DNA of 64,000 bases from a virus, in the IMG/VR virus record IMGVR_UViG_3300042402_003181. The stretch is one strand, 5' to 3'. How positions within the stretch are numbered: the first letter of the stretch is position 1; each line of letters begins with the position of its first letter. Under the pieces are notes generated by a model. It did no database searches. It was not told the origin of the DNA and was given only the letters and a program-made list of their open reading frames with translations. Below, one piece after another: positions 33,601 to 43,554 of the stretch. Position numbers and translations under genes: made by a program.

Positions 33601-34148
33601 ATATTAGCTATCCTTGGTTTGCACCTGCGGGTACTTCAAGAGGTGTTATTAATAACGCAACTGCAGTTGGGTATGTTGATGCCGGTGGTGAATTTAAAAC
33701 AGTTGCATTAAATGCCGGTCAACGTGATACATTAGCAGAAGTTAAAGTTAATCCAATTACATTTATTGCAGGTTCTGGATTAGTAAACTTTGGCCAATAT
33801 ACTCGTGCATCAAATGCAAGTTCATTAGATCGTATTAATGTTGCTCGTTTAGTAGTATTTTTACGTAGACAATTTAGTTTGCTAGCTAGACCGTACTTGT
33901 TTGAACCAAACGACGAAGCAACTCGTAAACAAATCAAACATGCTGCTGAAGCTATGTTACTTGAATTGATGGGACAACGTGCATTGTATGACTATGTTGT
34001 AGTATGTGATAGTTCTAATAATACACCTGCAAGAATCGATCGCAGCGAATTGTACCTTGATATCGCAATTGAACCGACAAAAGCAGTGGAATTCATTTAC
34101 ATTCCATTACGTTTGAAAAACACCGGTGAAATTAAAGGTCTTGGATAA
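30687..34148 (+). CDS. gp18: Contractile tail sheath protein (gp18-like), 1153 aa
   Basis: N-terminal L.SPGVSVSVIDES; C-terminal WFAPAG..RG, VNPI.F..G.G...FGQ.T, DRINVARL, IAIEPTKAVEFIYI. Confidence 0.93.
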   Translation: MAQLSSPGVSVSVIDESFYTAAGAGTIPLIIVASASNKLTGSGTGIAPGTISKNDGKLWLLTSQKDLSDTFGTPVFKTDTNNNPIHAGEQNEYGLQAAYSYLGVSNRAYVARAPIDLNQLDGKTAIPGGQPEDGTMWLETHSTHWGVFVWNSDVSTNPSGQTFTNIVPTVITDSTKVVNFSARDYAPKSSIGSAGTYAIVAVSSLTKLWYKKFQTQTAAGLWVEVGSAEWKASFPTVQSTIVESAFAKPLYNLATPVQTRNGDPVDAITINDITFTDFDTLQDLVDKINAATELVDYLGDVAITAAVIKNKLELYSTGIDIDLAGTLEETAEKIGLSIDPVTLYKAPTLQISSHTQVPLFKRKDLSTTNNGRPTGSVWIKTSNVNRGADFVVSKYNAKTQTWVSTKSPLYANGQSALADLDPTGGGLNLAANTLYVKYNDPESVYEIRSGNDGEVLVESSPSSASFKLYRRSDVTATVIESAPITTTLFASGTYTFNITESLIGSTELSSHDISFVVNAGDSSSTIIDTILEAFNSLSSLSNIEAAPVGDTKISISHKAGGELLFVDAPPYAIRKMFDPTNTTNFYHQQTNSTNAANMYIASLWTEYNIDRSASFVVSSENAPLGNPVDGQLWYDANRDDVDIMINDGNKRWKAYRNFDHGQGEGATDPKGPIISATKPTLQSDKTALVEGDLWIDSSDTENYPQIYKYINFTKQWELVDKTDQTTENGILFDDARWNTNGVSPNPSTIVELLGGSGLSDEARVAADFLDFDAPNPALYPKGMLLWNLRRSGFNVKRYAKKYVNKLDRNLRTGSESMINYNENVWVSEAANNEDGSGAFGRHAQRKVVVQSMQALVNKNQAIREEELNVFNLIACPGYPELVGEMKILNYDRGITAFVVADTPARLTADATSLSNWGKNVALAVEDNDYGLASSDEYMAFFYPWGYTSDNIGNNIVVPPSYMILRTIALSDNISYPWFAPAGTSRGVINNATAVGYVDAGGEFKTVALNAGQRDTLAEVKVNPITFIAGSGLVNFGQYTRASNASSLDRINVARLVVFLRRQFSLLARPYLFEPNDEATRKQIKHAAEAMLLELMGQRALYDYVVVCDSSNNTPARIDRSELYLDIAIEPTKAVEFIYIPLRLKNTGEIKGLG

Positions 34149-35902: not shown

Positions 35903-36261
35903 TTACAAATTTACCATTAGACACTACTAAAGAAATAGAAATTAAACAATTCTTTGATAGGTACTATCAAACAGAAGTTACGTTTCCTGCAGGGGAAATC
36001 GATGCAGTTGTTGGCTTTTTCCAACGCAGAGATTTTGATATAACTAGTGCAAGAACTACTGCGATTGTGTTATTAAACCAAGCAAGGCTTGATAATGTAA
36101 ACGTATTTGAGTTACTTGATACACTTAAATCATTTCCGGCACTTCAACTAAATCAGATTGTAGCACAGGTTATTAATGCATACCGACAAAAGACAAGTTT
36201 AATTGGTTTTCGAATTGCAGTACCTGAAAATACTTATGAAATAAGAAATGTATTAGTATGA
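35899..36261 (+). CDS. Hypothetical protein (120 aa)
   Basis: ORF coupled by ATGA overlaps on both sides. Confidence 0.7.
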   Translation: MITNLPLDTTKEIEIKQFFDRYYQTEVTFPAGEIDAVVGFFQRRDFDITSARTTAIVLLNQARLDNVNVFELLDTLKSFPALQLNQIVAQVINAYRQKTSLIGFRIAVPENTYEIRNVLV

Positions 36262-36698
36262 GTAGTCGTAAATTTGCTAAAGGTAAATATACTCCGAAGA
36301 ATCCAGGAAAATATGTAGGAACTAAAATTCCATACTATCGAAGTTCTTGGGAAATGAGCTTTATGCAAATGTGTGACACTAATCCTGCTATACAAAAGTG
36401 GGCAAGTGAAGCAATAACTATACCATATAGAGATCCATTAACTAATCGTAACACAATCTATCTCCCAGATTTCTTTATTCAATATGTAGATAAAAATCAT
36501 ATAATACACAACGAAGTAATTGAAATAAAACCTGCAAGCCAGCATATTTTAGAACGAGTTGGTAAAAACAGATACAATCAAGCACAATATATCAAAAATC
36601 AAGCCAAGTGGGCTGCAGCAATGATATATTGCAAACAACATGGATTAGTATTTAGAGTTATAAATGAAAATGATATTTTTCATAACGGTTCTAAATAA
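36258..36698 (+). CDS. gp4: Head completion nuclease, T4 gp4-like (TnsA-like fold)
   Basis: PKNPGKYVG...YRSSWE..FM..CD..P.I..WASE...IPY...Y.PDF...EIKP...NQAKW.AA motif set. Confidence 0.9.
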   Translation: MSSRKFAKGKYTPKNPGKYVGTKIPYYRSSWEMSFMQMCDTNPAIQKWASEAITIPYRDPLTNRNTIYLPDFFIQYVDKNHIIHNEVIEIKPASQHILERVGKNRYNQAQYIKNQAKWAAAMIYCKQHGLVFRVINENDIFHNGSK

Positions 36699-37853: not shown

Positions 37854-38329
37854 TGGATTTTAAAAAGTTAATGCAAACAATGCAAGACATTGATGAAGGG
37901 TGTGATCCTTCTATTCAAGAATGCGGCGATATGCCGGCAGCTATTATTCAAGGTGGACCTCCTCCTGAAGAATCATTAAACATGAACGTTACTATTAATA
38001 GTAAAGGTGCAGACGGCATTCGCGATTTAATGAATATATTAAAAGGCATTGGCGGAGATTCAGATACTGAACCTAAAGACATGCCAGATAATTCCGACGA
38101 TGCAGAAATTGTAATCGGTGATAGTTTTAAAAATTCTATACCCGGTGATCAAGGATCAAAAGTGTTTGATAGAGACGCAGTAATTTTTACTGGTGATGAT
38201 TTAGCAAGCAAAAAAGGCGGCGCTCTAAAAACAAATGGTGGAGAAAATCCACAACGTAATCATTTTCATGAATCATTAGTTACTAACTTGTTTTCGTTAT
38301 ATGAAGATGTAAAATCTCGAAAACACTAA
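37853..38329 (+). CDS. Hypothetical acidic protein, probable head-associated
   Basis: TAATG coupling; followed by terminator. Confidence 0.6.
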   Translation: MDFKKLMQTMQDIDEGCDPSIQECGDMPAAIIQGGPPPEESLNMNVTINSKGADGIRDLMNILKGIGGDSDTEPKDMPDNSDDAEIVIGDSFKNSIPGDQGSKVFDRDAVIFTGDDLASKKGGALKTNGGENPQRNHFHESLVTNLFSLYEDVKSRKH

Positions 38330-38351
38330 CAGCTACTTATAATATAATCAT

Positions 38352-38379
38352 AAAGCGGACATATTGTCCGCTTTTTTTT
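38352..38379 (+). terminator. Rho-independent terminator
   Basis: aaa-gcggaca-tat-tgtccgc-tttttttt. Confidence 0.85.
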
Positions 38380-38407
38380 GTAAATACATAATACAAAAAG
38401 GATTATT

Positions 38408-39334
38408 ATGGGTAAAAGTCTTGACGGTGTTTTAACAAAAAAAGCACATAAAACTGAACGATTTGAAGAACAACAGATTATTGATTTACAAATGTGCTCT
38501 GATCCAGCAGTTGGGTATCTTTATTTCTCAAGACACTTCTTTCACATTCAGCATTCAGTAAAAGGTAAATTATTATTTGAACCATTTGATTATCAAGTTA
38601 ACTTGTTAAATTGTTATCATGCACATCGGTTTAATATTAATATGTTACCTCGCCAAAGTGGTAAAACAACCTGTGCATCTGCGTACTTGTTATGGTTTGC
38701 AATGTTTCATCCAGATCAAACTATTCTAATTGCAGCGCACAAATATACTGGTGCTCAAGAGATTATGCAACGTATACGATACGGATACGAACTATGTCCG
38801 GACTTCTTACGTGCAGGGGTAGTAAGTTATAATAAAGGGTCTATGGAGTTTGATAACGGTTCTCGTATTGTAAGTCAAACTACTACTGGTACTACAGGAC
38901 GAGGTATGTCTATTTCGTTATTGTATTGCGATGAGTTTGCGTTCTTACAACCTAACATTGCTGAAGAATTTTGGACTTCTATATCACCCACACTAGCAAC
39001 TGGTGGACGTTGTATTATTACATCTACACCAAATAGTGACGAAGATCAATTTGCTACTATATGGAAAGAAAGTCAACAGTTTTTTGACGAGTTTGGCAAT
39101 GAGAAAGCAGACAAAGTTGGCATTAACGGTTTTTCTGGATTTAGATCAGATTGGTGGGATCATCCAGATCGTGACGATGCATGGAAACAAGAAGAGCTTG
39201 GTCGTATAGGTGAGGAAAAATTTAGACGTGAATACGGTTGTATTGTGCATGATTCAGTTGTAACTGTTAAATGGCCATCTGGAAAAATTGAAAAACTAAC
39301 AATGGGCGATATTATGCGATTATTAAGTTCATAG
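38408..39334 (+). CDS. gp17: Terminase large subunit N-terminal (ATPase) part fused to a 31-aa N-intein
   Basis: PRQSGKTT Walker A, GRGMSISLLYCDEFAF Walker B, ITSTPN motif III; ends FRREYG|CIVHDSVVTV...stop. Confidence 0.93.
   Translation: MGKSLDGVLTKKAHKTERFEEQQIIDLQMCSDPAVGYLYFSRHFFHIQHSVKGKLLFEPFDYQVNLLNCYHAHRFNINMLPRQSGKTTCASAYLLWFAMFHPDQTILIAAHKYTGAQEIMQRIRYGYELCPDFLRAGVVSYNKGSMEFDNGSRIVSQTTTGTTGRGMSISLLYCDEFAFLQPNIAEEFWTSISPTLATGGRCIITSTPNSDEDQFATIWKESQQFFDEFGNEKADKVGINGFSGFRSDWWDHPDRDDAWKQEELGRIGEEKFRREYGCIVHDSVVTVKWPSGKIEKLTMGDIMRLLSS
39239..39331 (+). mobile_element. Split intein N-fragment (31 aa, Cys1 at 39239)
   Basis: CIVHDSVVTVKWPSGKIEKLTMGDIMRLLSS fits intein block A (C..g.t.V.....G...i.dl) and is followed by TAG. 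Confidence 0.85.
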
Positions 39335-39347
39335 TATATGACGAAAT

Positions 39348-39355
39348 GATAAATA
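39348..39355 (+). promoter_or_regulatory. Late promoter GATAAATA for the homing endonuclease
   Basis: GATAAATA-ctagc-ATG(39361). Confidence 0.6.
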
Positions 39356-39360
39356 CTAGC

Positions 39361-40140
39361 ATGTATTATGTATATATTTATAAAACCCCAATTAACATCA
39401 CAGTAAGTTATATGAGTATTTTAGCAAATCAACCGTTTTATATTGGGAAGGGCCACGGTAGGCGATATAAAGATCATTTATCAGAAACTGCAGAAACTAC
39501 GTGTAATCATTTAAAAGTTGCGGTAATTTCTAGATTAGTCGCGCAAAATCTAACTCCGGTTATAGAAATGTATCAAACTGAGTTAACAGATGCTGCAGCA
39601 AAGGCTCTTGAAACTGATCTGATTAACCAGTACGGCCGATTAATTGATCATGCCGGCCCGTTAACAAATAAAACACTAGGCGGAGATGGGTGTACTGGAT
39701 TTAAACATACTGAAGAAACCAAACAATTAATGAGTATTCAGAGAAAAGGAACTATTCCATATAATAAAGGTATCGCTCGTCCAGGAATTGGTGGACGTAC
39801 ATTAGGTACTAAATGGTCTGAATCTGAAAGAGAAACTCAACTGTTAGTTAGAAGCCAACCAGGTTATTATGAGTTTAACAAATGTCCTATAAGAGCAAAA
39901 AAAATAAGTGACTCCAAAAAAGGAAAACCTGGATCAGCAAAAGACAAACAATGGTTTAATAATGGAGTTATTGAGACCTATAAAGATATATGCCCTGACG
40001 GATTTGTTAAGGGAAGACTTCCTAGATTACAAATATCAAAGAGAGGCATGTGTTGGTATAATAATGGAGTAATTAACAAACAATTTAAAGAAGGAACAGA
40101 ACTTGATGGATTTACACGCGGAAGAATTAATAAAAAATAA
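39361..40140 (+). CDS. Free-standing GIY-YIG homing endonuclease with NUMOD3-like and C-terminal WxNNG repeats
   Basis: YYVYIY...PFYIGKG..RR...H...E..LI...G...L.N; GFKHTEETKQLMS (NUMOD3-like); two W(F/Y)NNG...DGF..GR repeats. Likely start at 39361 rather than 39346. Confidence 0.85.
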   Translation: MYYVYIYKTPINITVSYMSILANQPFYIGKGHGRRYKDHLSETAETTCNHLKVAVISRLVAQNLTPVIEMYQTELTDAAAKALETDLINQYGRLIDHAGPLTNKTLGGDGCTGFKHTEETKQLMSIQRKGTIPYNKGIARPGIGGRTLGTKWSESERETQLLVRSQPGYYEFNKCPIRAKKISDSKKGKPGSAKDKQWFNNGVIETYKDICPDGFVKGRLPRLQISKRGMCWYNNGVINKQFKEGTELDGFTRGRINKK

Positions 40141-41215
40141 GTTAGGATTAACAGTGCTAACTGACACCGGCTGGAGCAAGTTTGACGGAATCTTAGTTAA
40201 AGGTGTTAAAAAGATACTTCATGTAACTACACAACGTCATTCACTTAAAAGCACTCCTGATCATAAATATTTTCTTAATGGGTTTAAACCGATAGAAGGT
40301 AGATTATTATTGCCTAAACAAAAAATTTTAGTTAATGGCAAACTTGATAATGTCGTGTCTGTTAAGTGGCTGTTAGATGAAGAACCAGTATACGATCTGT
40401 TTAATGTTGAACAGAATCACAGGTATTATGCAAATAACGTTCTAATCAAAAATTGCGAATTTTTAGTATACGACGAAACTCTTATAAACAGTTTGAAGTT
40501 AGTTGAGCTGTATGGTAAAGAACCTATGATGAAAATGGGGCAAGTGCGATGGTATAAAACACCAACTGCAGGTAATTTATATTTAATTGCATTAGATCCT
40601 AGTTTAGGTACAGGAGGCGACTATTCGGCTATTACTGTTTTTGAATTACCATCAATGGTGCAAGTTGCAGAATGGCATCATAACATTACTCCTATACAAG
40701 GACAGGTAAAGTTATTTAGAGATATATTATTATATGTACAAGACGAAATTGGTGCTGATCAATATAATTCAATATATTGGTCGGTAGAAAATAATACAGT
40801 AGGCGAAAGCGCATTAGTAGTAATTGACAACTTAGGAGAAGAAACATTTCCGGGATTATTTGTGAGCGAGCCGGGCAGAAAAGGGCATGTTCGAAAATTC
40901 CGCAAAGGATTTAATACAACCTTTAATAATAAAATTGCTGCATGTTCAAAATTAAAATTTTTTGTTGAAGAAGATAAGATGGTAATTAATAGCAAACCGT
41001 TAATAACCGAATTAAAATCTTTCATTGCACATGGAATTAGTTTTAAAGGTAAACCGGGACAACACGACGATTTAGTAGCAGCATTATTATTAATAGTAAG
41101 AATGATTGATATACTAGCAGAATGGGATCCTTTAGTATTTGAAAAAATGCGGATTGAAGATCGAATTGAGGACTGGGAAGCACCTCTACCAATATTTGTT
41201 TCCTCTAATATGTGA
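40106..41215 (+). CDS. gp17: 116-aa C-intein fused to terminase large subunit C-terminal (nuclease) part
   Basis: KSTPDH (block B TxxH), EPVYDLFNVEQNHRYYANNVLIKN|CEF (blocks F/G); nuclease motifs ALDPSLGTGGDYSA, VENNTVG, HDDLVAAL. Confidence 0.9.
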   Translation: MDLHAEELIKNKLGLTVLTDTGWSKFDGILVKGVKKILHVTTQRHSLKSTPDHKYFLNGFKPIEGRLLLPKQKILVNGKLDNVVSVKWLLDEEPVYDLFNVEQNHRYYANNVLIKNCEFLVYDETLINSLKLVELYGKEPMMKMGQVRWYKTPTAGNLYLIALDPSLGTGGDYSAITVFELPSMVQVAEWHHNITPIQGQVKLFRDILLYVQDEIGADQYNSIYWSVENNTVGESALVVIDNLGEETFPGLFVSEPGRKGHVRKFRKGFNTTFNNKIAACSKLKFFVEEDKMVINSKPLITELKSFIAHGISFKGKPGQHDDLVAALLLIVRMIDILAEWDPLVFEKMRIEDRIEDWEAPLPIFVSSNM

Positions 41216-41221
41216 TAAATA
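41214..41221 (+). promoter_or_regulatory. Late promoter GATAAATA, 5 nt before ATG 41227
   Basis: GATAAATA-taaac-ATG with no RBS. Confidence 0.65.
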
Positions 41222-41226
41222 TAAAC

Positions 41227-43554
41227 ATGGACAATAATTTAGATAAAATTGCTTTAGACCTTTATGGTAAAATACAAACACGTTTTTCAGACATTACGAT
41301 GGGAGACGAGAACGCAGCAGTACTGAGTAAAAAAGTTGATATTCCAAAAGCACGATTCTTTGAGTTTGAGTATACTGAAGATGACAAACCACTTGGAACT
41401 ATTACTATTACTTTAGATAAAGACGACGGAGTTGTAGTGCAAGTTAGTGGGGATTTAGTAGACAACGATTCTGATACGACCCACCATAACGCATACAAAT
41501 TCATTCGATCATTTAGAAACTTTGCTAAACATCGCTTATTAAACTTTGATGTACAAAACATTGGAAAAAGCAACTTAGACAAACGAGACTACCAGTTTCA
41601 AGCAAAACCCAAGGAACAACAAATGATGGAAAGTAAAATGTTTGGTACTTCTAGAATAAGTTACCAAGACTTAGGCGAGGCTCGTTTAATAGTTAAACAT
41701 ACTCAACCTGTTAATCCAGAGTTAGCTGCAGGCCGTACAATGCATATTGAATGTATATACATTGAAAATGCAGACGGCGAACGATTCAAATATCCATATA
41801 AACACTTACCCGGTGCTCGTGCATTAGCAGAACACATTAAACACGGTGGTATCCCGTATGATGATATTGGTAAACATATTACTAAACTTAGCGAAGAATT
41901 AGCAAGTTTACGTAAGTTTAAAGGATATGTTAGTCGCCAATCACAAATATCAGAAGCAATGGGCGACGTTACAACGCGTGTAATTGAACGCATTGATGCA
42001 GTTAAAAAAGAAATTGTTAGCTTACAACGTCCGGCTTACTATCAACAATTTGCAGAATCATTTACTACAACAGAAGAAAGAGTAATACCGGAAACTGTTA
42101 TGAACGATTGGATTGAACGCCTAACTGTTCGCACATTTAATGAAGAAATGAAAACAGTATTTCCGTTCTTATATAACATTGTAGACGAAAGTGAGTTGCC
42201 AGTTTGTGAATTATCTTCAGATTACTTTATGGATGAAGCTGCACCTAAAGGATGGGAAGGTACTGTTAAAGCAATGAAAAAACACAAGGAAATTGATAAT
42301 CCTTGGGCATTAGCACACTCAATGAAAAACAAAGGCTATAAAAGTCATAAGAAAGAAGAACTTGATCCAGAGCTTGCATTTGAGTCATTTATTAATCATC
42401 TTATGAATGAAGACAAAGATGAATTGTTTAGTCAGTCGTTAACATCTAAGCATGCTGCAATTGAAAAGTTGAATGATCTACTAGCACAACCGTTGCTTAA
42501 CGGTGCGTATGGAGAAGGTGCAGCCGAAGAATTAGAAGGGTTAATTAATGATCCTGCTTTTTTTGATTCTCTCAAAACAGTTGACGCAGATTTAGATATA
42601 CGTGCAATACTTCAAAATTATATTACGCAACGAGATCCAGACGTAGCAATTCAATTAAAAATTGGTCCTGATGCAGACAGCACCCCTGCGGTACCGACTG
42701 AACCTAGTGCTCCAATGCCGGATGCAGGTGCTCCGATGCCAGATGCAGGTGCTCCAATGCCGGATGCAGGTGGCGGGTTAGGTGGCGGGTTAGGTGGTAT
42801 GCCTCCAGACTTAGGTGGCGGTATGCCTCCAGAAGGTGAATTAGGCGCAGAAGGTGAAGTGCCTCCAGCAGCACCGGGTGAAGAAGGTGAAGTACCTCCA
42901 GCAGCACCGGGTGAAGAACCACCAGCAGCACCGGTTGCAGAAGGAATTAATCCTAAAAAATCTAAAATGAAAGCTAAGTTTATTAAAGCTAAAGCTGCGG
43001 GTGCTAACTTAGATACTCCAATTGCAGAAGGTATGACAATCCGTGATCTTATTAGAGAAAGTGGAATGACACCTAGTGAAGCGGGATTTGGCGAGTATGA
43101 AGTAGAAGATAATGATCAAGAAGGTGGTGAACCGGAAGAAGAAAACATTTCAGGTGTTAATCAAATTTTAAGATCAATTATAGGATTTTGGAATGCAGAA
43201 GACCGTAACTTTACAGTTGGCGGAACACGCGTTAAAATTATTATTAAGAAAAACTATGAAGATGACGAATACAGCAATGCATCAGACGACGATGTAAAAT
43301 ATGTAATGCAAAAAGTTAATAAATTAGATCCAAGTTCAGACGATCAAGAACAGACTGATGTATTAAGACTAGCCGGATTAGGCAACCAAGAACCTGAAGA
43401 TGATGACGGTCAAGACATTGCAATGTTGATGAAAGAGCTACAGGGATTTGGTGGCAGACGTAAATTTGATAGCATTGATAAACATAAAATGCACAAAACA
43501 ATGAGAAATAATTATGAAAAAAACTTTAGAAACCGCTCTTCTAAATTCCGTTAA
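41227..43554 (+). CDS. Large acidic hypothetical protein with Pro/Gly/Ala-rich linker, probable head/core protein
   Basis: ORF track (start moved to 41227); low-complexity repeats; contains PKGWEGTVKAMKKH..IDNPWALA motif. Confidence 0.7.
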   Translation: MDNNLDKIALDLYGKIQTRFSDITMGDENAAVLSKKVDIPKARFFEFEYTEDDKPLGTITITLDKDDGVVVQVSGDLVDNDSDTTHHNAYKFIRSFRNFAKHRLLNFDVQNIGKSNLDKRDYQFQAKPKEQQMMESKMFGTSRISYQDLGEARLIVKHTQPVNPELAAGRTMHIECIYIENADGERFKYPYKHLPGARALAEHIKHGGIPYDDIGKHITKLSEELASLRKFKGYVSRQSQISEAMGDVTTRVIERIDAVKKEIVSLQRPAYYQQFAESFTTTEERVIPETVMNDWIERLTVRTFNEEMKTVFPFLYNIVDESELPVCELSSDYFMDEAAPKGWEGTVKAMKKHKEIDNPWALAHSMKNKGYKSHKKEELDPELAFESFINHLMNEDKDELFSQSLTSKHAAIEKLNDLLAQPLLNGAYGEGAAEELEGLINDPAFFDSLKTVDADLDIRAILQNYITQRDPDVAIQLKIGPDADSTPAVPTEPSAPMPDAGAPMPDAGAPMPDAGGGLGGGLGGMPPDLGGGMPPEGELGAEGEVPPAAPGEEGEVPPAAPGEEPPAAPVAEGINPKKSKMKAKFIKAKAAGANLDTPIAEGMTIRDLIRESGMTPSEAGFGEYEVEDNDQEGGEPEEENISGVNQILRSIIGFWNAEDRNFTVGGTRVKIIIKKNYEDDEYSNASDDDVKYVMQKVNKLDPSSDDQEQTDVLRLAGLGNQEPEDDDGQDIAMLMKELQGFGGRRKFDSIDKHKMHKTMRNNYEKNFRNRSSKFR
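42709..42930 (+). repeat. Intragenic tandem repeats: 3x21 nt (APMPDAG), 2x12 nt (GGLG), about 2.5x33 nt (EGEVPPAAPGE)
   Basis: gctccaatgccggatgcaggt x3 at 42709-42771; ggcgggttaggt x2; gaaggtgaagt.cctccagcagcaccgggtgaa x2 plus partial. Confidence 0.9.

Follow-up and report, generated by a model that had tools for sequence, protein, structure and literature searches.

The closest described relatives of the locus analyzed here are inteins in the large terminase gene (terL) of phages that are split near the N-terminus of the intein. One of these, AceL-TerL, was reportedly described by Thiel et al. in 2014, and its consensus derivative, Cat (PDB 6DSL), by Stevens et al. in 2018. Fractured genes had been defined by Dassa et al. 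in 2009 (PMC2677866). In Global Ocean Sampling data, Dassa et al. found a locus for a gp17-like terminase that was 'fractured at an unusual point'; its C-part of 122 residues contained all intein motifs except N1, and the endonucleases between the two halves were of the GIY-YIG and the Vsr-like types (PMC2677866). The intein of that locus, GOS-TerL, was characterized later (Bachmann and Mootz 2015, via the review PMC11766414). AceL-TerL (25/104 amino acids), GOS-TerL (37/115 amino acids, with Ser1), and Cat have been characterized biochemically, and AceL-TerL and GOS-TerL are experimentally active and splice in vitro (review PMC11766414). The layout and the break point that we discuss below have been in the literature since 2009, and the mechanism has been published as well. 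Here we describe a terL gene that is broken in a comparable way, at positions 38408-41215 of a 64,000-nucleotide (nt) stretch of phage DNA (hereafter, the window).

The window is part of a 175,916-bp virus record in IMG/VR (IMGVR_UViG_3300042402_003181) that is estimated to be 48% complete and comes from a large uncultured (giant) phage. We found that its terL is split over three adjacent open reading frames (ORFs), all on the + strand (Table 1). The first, ORF1 (38408-39334), encodes 308 amino acids (aa): 277 aa of the N-terminal part of the terminase (TerL-N) followed by a 31-aa N-intein. The third gene starts at ATG 40106, and its product has a 116-aa C-intein followed by 253 aa of TerL-C. 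The intein halves total 31 + 116 = 147 aa. Without the insert, the exteins make up a 530-aa TerL that is nearest to those of jumbo phages, e.g., PA5oct, MIJ3, and RaK2. The locus is a fractured gene as defined by Dassa et al. 2009 (PMC2677866). Because the insert cuts terL into two genes, the motor would have to be joined after translation. We consider it very likely that the two terminase products associate through their intein halves and trans-splice into the 530-aa TerL, and that the endonuclease encoded between them spreads the cassette.

An earlier note on this DNA had proposed the same anatomy: TerL-N ending in FRREYG, then a 31-aa N-intein and a TAG stop; TerL-C opening with a 116-aa C-intein (TPDH, VYDL, and IKN) before CEF; an insert whose removal restores FRREYG-CEFL; fragments adding up to a complete mini-intein; a penultimate Lys in place of His; and an endonuclease gene filling the gap. 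All of these points held up, on the evidence given below.

The boundaries of the intein are fixed by alleles that lack it and that read straight through FRREYG-CEFLVYDE. Dozens of intein-less relatives (526-532 aa; P0167, P0170-P0197) read FRREYGCEFLVYDE across the junction without a gap, and the TerL of phage MIJ3, which likewise lacks the intein, is colinear there as well. The empty site is also found in three viral contigs (loci L011-L013) that are 93-98% identical, at the amino acid level, to the exteins in the window. As judged from these alignments, removal of the insert restores a colinear TerL at residue level.

The 116-aa piece is not a chance resemblance to an intein, because it matches many proteins in a large library and matches solved inteins both by sequence and by fold. 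When we scored it against 1.84 billion representative proteins, 278 matched at E <= 1e-3, and 34 of these at E <= 1e-10. Among solved structures, it matched NpuDnaB by sequence (4o1r; E 0.0025). There were also matches to 7cfv, DnaX, gp41-1, and CatC (6dsl_B), the last aligned over C-fragment residues 11-116 (phmmer E 0.22). An AlphaFold2 model of the C-fragment alone had a predicted local distance difference test score (pLDDT) of 91 and a predicted template-modeling score (pTM) of 0.81. With this model, the top three Foldseek matches were VidaL (6vgv), NpuDnaB (4o1r), and Cat (6dsl_B), all with probability 1.00, and two of the three (VidaL and Cat) are atypically split inteins. The alignment to 6vgv (E 2.3e-07) had a root-mean-square deviation of 1.2 Å over 101 columns at 21% identity, and that to 6dsl_B had a template-modeling (TM) score of 0.73 normalized to CatC at ~21% identity. 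Nearly all of the 49 matches listed at E <= 1e-3 were inteins. The remaining ones (2lwy, 6y75, and 6tmm) are BIL domains, which resemble inteins and belong to the same HINT superfamily. Based on the model, the C-fragment alone is predicted to adopt the HINT fold. A search of the PDB with the sequence of the 31-aa N-fragment found nothing relevant.

The residues needed for class-1 splicing are in place. A Cys (39239-39241) directly follows FRREYG, at the position of the class-1 nucleophile. The T-x-x-H motif of block B is TPDH (C-fragment residues 50-53); among the aligned homologues, its His is kept in 204/206 and its Thr in 158/206. Similarly conserved are the block F Asp (D97; 187/207), the terminal Asn (N116; 196/202), and Cys+1 (155/162). 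The Pfam Intein_splicing family had no further match in the whole 176-kb record. A second C-intein-like match, antisense in the tail-sheath gene (window 33772-33879), is full of stop codons, and we dismissed it as chance.

Comparison with unbroken inteins indicates that the two halves together are a complete mini-intein. At this terL site, other proteins (P0011, P0046, and P0030) have unbroken mini-inteins of 137-143 aa, in which the first ~30 residues line up with the 31-aa N-fragment. This alignment places the break in the loop that leads into the V-L-T-x-x-G strand. Residue 13 of CatC aligns to residue 11 of the C-fragment, and the break point thus matches that of the AceL/GOS-TerL consensus (Cat). 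The N-fragment hardly varies, with the same end point, across more than 15 relatives (including P0152-P0166) in which the neighboring extein is ~80% identical, an invariance that fits selection on a functional piece. A regular-expression search for an AceL-like motif over the library matches found only one loosely similar fragment (P0113).

Some observations speak against trans-splicing and homing as we propose them. The penultimate residue of the intein is Lys115 and not the usual His, and TerL is broken where its ATPase and nuclease domains meet. In addition, the match of the endonuclease to LEM-3_GIY-YIG (PF22945) is 23.3 bits, below the Pfam cut-off of 27, and the endonuclease gene has no recognizable Shine-Dalgarno sequence. 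The first two points are what one would expect if the intein halves only tether the TerL chains non-covalently, or if splicing has been lost, leaving a two-chain terminase comparable to the HNH-fractured NrdA in phage Aeh1. A TerL of two non-covalently held chains is conceivable because the break is at a domain boundary, and functional fractured genes without inteins have been documented (PMC2677866; PMC3045599). However, Cys1, T50/H53, D97, Asn116, and Cys+1 are all kept, both here and across deep divergence. The penultimate His usually assists Asn cyclization and is common in class-1 inteins, but it is not obligatory. Across the family this residue is His in 142/204, Ser in 45, Lys in 13, and Ala in 3, and the nearest subclade has only Lys, Ser, or Ala. 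Lys115 is therefore a trait of the clade and not a private lesion. Furthermore, the related AceL-TerL and GOS-TerL inteins do splice in vitro (PMC11766414). We regard a two-chain terminase as unlikely and favor splicing into a single TerL.

The other lines of evidence on the gene between the halves point to a homing endonuclease. In the 264-aa product, NUMOD3 scored 27.1 bits (Pfam cut-off 20.4), indicating a DNA-binding tail, and the protein matches PHROG 314, 'homing endonuclease' (6e-10). Along its whole length, it shares 37% identity with the GIY-YIG part of P0006, whose score of 33 bits is above the Pfam cut-off, and Y-I-Y and Y-I-G-K-G motifs can be recognized by eye. A sequence search of the PDB with the endonuclease gave no match.

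P0006 (L058:3001-4935; loci L058 and L059) and P0017 are proteins of 644 and 618 aa in which the GIY-YIG endonuclease continues in frame into the C-intein and TerL-C. A one-nucleotide frame offset at a run of six A residues (A6; 40132-40137) separates the window from this fused layout. One A less in the run would fuse the frames, with a junction like those of P0006 and P0017. A +1 shift at the A6-TAA run (40132-40140) could then yield some of the endonuclease in fused form, joined to the C-intein and TerL-C. But the C-intein starts at an ATG of its own with a separate ribosome-binding site (RBS), and in unfused relatives, e.g., L057, the overlap between the two genes persists with no A-run there. 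That is, there is no conserved slippery site, and we think that production of a fusion is quite improbable. An overlap like that at 40106-40140, in another frame, is kept in the distant relatives L057, L060, and L063.

Phage group I introns often house GIY-YIG genes, as in T4 td, and the interval between the terL halves might be removed from the RNA, e.g., as such an intron, with the intein-like residues a coincidence. Yet the sequences on either side of the endonuclease gene are clearly the two halves of an intein, and they continue the reading frames of the exteins. Removal from the RNA is also opposed by a permissive Rfam scan (38000-41600): it found no group I or other intron, and its sole matches were four weak, sub-threshold matches to small RNAs or leaders upstream (38298-38454). 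We give this explanation almost no weight and, as above, favor joining at the level of protein.

A hairpin search found no terminator between the three genes; there is a strong terminator-like hairpin before ORF1. An RNA hairpin hiding the start of the endonuclease gene was considered and rejected (z-score -0.05). ATAAATA followed after 3-7 nt by ATG occurs on the + strand at window 34871, 39349, and 41215. Two of these are at apparent gene starts, and the one at 39349 is 15 nt inside the endonuclease ORF. With this ATAAATA box, the endonuclease might have a late, leaderless start of its own at ATG 39361. The late-promoter boxes TATAAATA, TGTAAATA, and ATAAATA-N3-7-ATG were not enriched over shuffles, and so we can only infer promoter roles for them.

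Table 1. Positions of the parts of the split terL locus and of associated signals in the window
Feature	Position	Strand	Basis
TerL N-extein, 277 aa, ATPase domain, C-terminal FRREYG	38408..39238	+	Pfam Terminase_6N E 2.5e-18; phrog_36964 E 1e-67
N-intein fragment, 31 aa from Cys1, block A only, then TAG	39239..39334	+	ORF list, relatives
Free-standing homing endonuclease gene, 264 aa, probable GIY-YIG head and NUMOD3 / repeated W(F/Y)NNG DNA-binding tail	39346..40140	+	Pfam, PHROG
Alternative endonuclease start, ATG, with ATAAATA box five nt upstream	39361	+	sequence
C-intein fragment, 116 aa: block B TPDH, block F VYDL, end IKN (Asn116)	40106..40453	+	sequence and fold matches
TerL C-extein, 253 aa from Cys+1 (CEF...), nuclease domain, and stop	40454..41215	+	phrog_36964 E 1.3e-51; Terminase_6C weak
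RBS GAAGGA, 10 nt 5' of the C-half ATG (40106)	40090..40095	+	sequence
35-nt dual-coding overlap of endonuclease 3' end and C-intein 5' end, different frames	40106..40140	+	sequence
Terminator-like hairpin of upstream gene, 10-bp stem then T-run	38352..38374	+	hairpin search
Late-promoter-like box TGTAAATA ahead of terL-N	38379..38386	+	putative promoter role

We also compared the insert and its flanks with those in other contigs. Six other IMG/VR contigs, which come from different samples, contain the 1215-nt cassette (39239-40453) at 99.2-100% nucleotide identity. The flanking terL exteins in these contigs are 87-94% identical, and the 600 nt upstream ~73%. Coexisting empty alleles are 88-91% identical at the nucleotide level, and the stretches of perfect identity that adjoin the insert are short (10-59 nt). 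A near-identical cassette with diverged flanks, together with empty alleles, is what one would expect from recent homing into diverged phages. From these comparisons, the whole unit of N-intein (IntN), endonuclease gene, and C-intein (IntC) looks like a homing cassette that is spreading recently. At the Gly(-1) codon (window 39236-39241), all occupied alleles have GGT and the three empty alleles (L011-L013) have GGC; this difference might be a trace of co-conversion by the endonuclease, or a mark of target immunity to it.

The same contigs bear on whether the arrangement is real. The record is assembled from a metagenome and, as noted, is estimated to be about half complete, and the break could be an assembly artefact or the remains of a dead, pseudogenized terL. 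Against this, the identical arrangement is in all six of the other contigs, more distant versions of it are in JGI, ENA, and Logan assemblies, and the three ORFs are all intact and conserved. An artefact or a dead gene seems to us exceedingly improbable.

The mechanism that we propose is as follows. A 1.2-kb mobile cassette, made of the N-intein, the endonuclease gene, and the C-intein, sits at the ATPase/nuclease boundary of TerL. The three genes are probably co-transcribed late, and the C-half would be translated from its own start and RBS, which lie within the last part of the endonuclease gene. On TerL-N, the short N-intein would dock onto the near-complete HINT domain on TerL-C, and class-1 trans-splicing (with Cys1, the block B Thr and His, the block F Asp, Asn116, and Cys+1) would join ...FRREYG to CEFLVYDE... 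to make the 530-aa TerL. The endonuclease would cut the intein-less terL of co-infecting phages, and the whole cassette would be copied in. It is plausible that insertion of the endonuclease gene caused the intein to split, a hypothesis that has been published.

An ORF lies between the intein halves in every relative context examined. The closest relative of the C-intein is that of L060, at 59% identity. In L060 (1925-2620) and in the distant relative L057 (3385-4053), both with the insert at the same terL site, the endonucleases have HNH heads. The tails of these HNH enzymes (NUMOD3 / W(F/Y)NNG) are 47% (L060) and 38% (L057) identical to the tail of the GIY-YIG protein in the window. Since HNH and GIY-YIG enzymes share these tails, catalytic heads appear to have been exchanged on one targeting module.

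Among the best 150 representatives of the C-intein matches, N-terminal C-inteins precede TerL at three sites: 30 before extein residue 278 (the site in the window), 18 before residue ~172, and 6 before residue ~84. Close relatives (P0155-P0163; L015:1834-3392; L036) have more inteins in the ATPase half, near extein residues ~84 and ~172. In some of these, TerL is in three pieces, and the middle piece, of 245 aa, starts with a C-intein and ends with the N-intein described here. With dozens of N-terminal C-inteins at no fewer than three terL sites, the 'atypical' short-N/long-C geometry is common in environmental phages. The earlier note had recognized the geometry known from AceL-TerL and GOS-TerL and had called it rare. 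The geometry is confirmed, with the break placed in the structure as it is in Cat; the rarity does not hold, given the dozens of cases.

Two neighboring genes deserve mention. A 146-aa protein encoded at window 36258-36698 (+) has a TnsA-like endonuclease N-terminal domain (Pfam E 6e-20) and is labeled 'head closure' by PHROGs (phrog_218, E 8.5e-41). Just downstream of terL, at window 41212-43554 (+), is the gene for a 780-aa virion structural protein (phrog_13484) with a Pro/Gly/Ala-rich tandem-repeat tract; the G+C fraction is 0.54 at 42600-42899 and ~0.34 around it. The true start of this gene may be ATG 41227, which has an ATAAATA box upstream.

The locus would be a clean natural case in which an essential late phage gene depends on protein trans-splicing, and the near-identical cassette in diverged terL genes, along with the empty alleles, suggests that homing of the whole cassette is happening now. 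Short N-inteins permit semisynthesis, and a natural 31-aa fragment that starts with Cys1 and is distant from AceL, GOS, and Cat is a reasonable candidate for an orthogonal pair. The same data hold many comparable candidates, and the locus opens no new question. More speculatively, the 31/116 intein with its penultimate Lys could be a distinct terL 'site-c' subfamily that is sweeping large environmental phages as one IntN-endonuclease-IntC cassette, that records, with its relatives, how endonucleases enter inteins at a non-canonical position, and that is orthogonal as a tool to the AceL, GOS, and Cat pairs. We put this forward tentatively, as a possibility that is more doubtful than not.

The locus can be compared with each of the known systems. 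It shares with GOS-TerL a phage source, terL halves that keep their order and orientation, a break near the N-terminus of the intein, and a C-part with every motif except N1 (122 aa there, 116 aa here). By its published description, GOS-TerL differs in having Ser1 and a 37-aa N-fragment, whereas the intein in the window has Cys1, 31 aa, and a penultimate Lys. In phage-derived gp41-1, NrdJ-1, and IMPDH-1 (PMC2677866), the intein halves also flank the gene for a GIY-YIG or other homing endonuclease, but these inteins are broken at the usual point of endonuclease insertion, with N-parts of 88-105 aa and C-parts of 33-54 aa. In contrast, the intein in the window is broken after ~31 aa.

VidaL (6VGV), the best structural match of the C-fragment model, is likewise an atypically split phage intein. 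It differs in having a shorter N-fragment, 21% identity, and other host genes; the VidaL inteins are in T4Lh and UvsX.

With AceL-TerL and Cat, the locus has in common a class-1 intein in terL with Cys1 and Cys+1, and a short N-fragment with a long C-fragment (25-30 and ~104 aa in AceL-TerL and Cat). CatC aligns end to end with the C-fragment from the window, starting from the same strand. The C-fragment here has a leader that is 12 aa longer, as well as insertions, and it ends in Lys-Asn, whereas the commonest ending in the family is His-Asn. The earlier note had seen a resemblance of the fragments to AceL-TerL and GOS-TerL and had suggested a new ortholog. The resemblance proved only distant (~21% identity to Cat, E 0.22). 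At this level of identity, the intein belongs to a distinct subfamily and is not an orthologue of AceL-TerL or Cat, even though its break falls at the same place.

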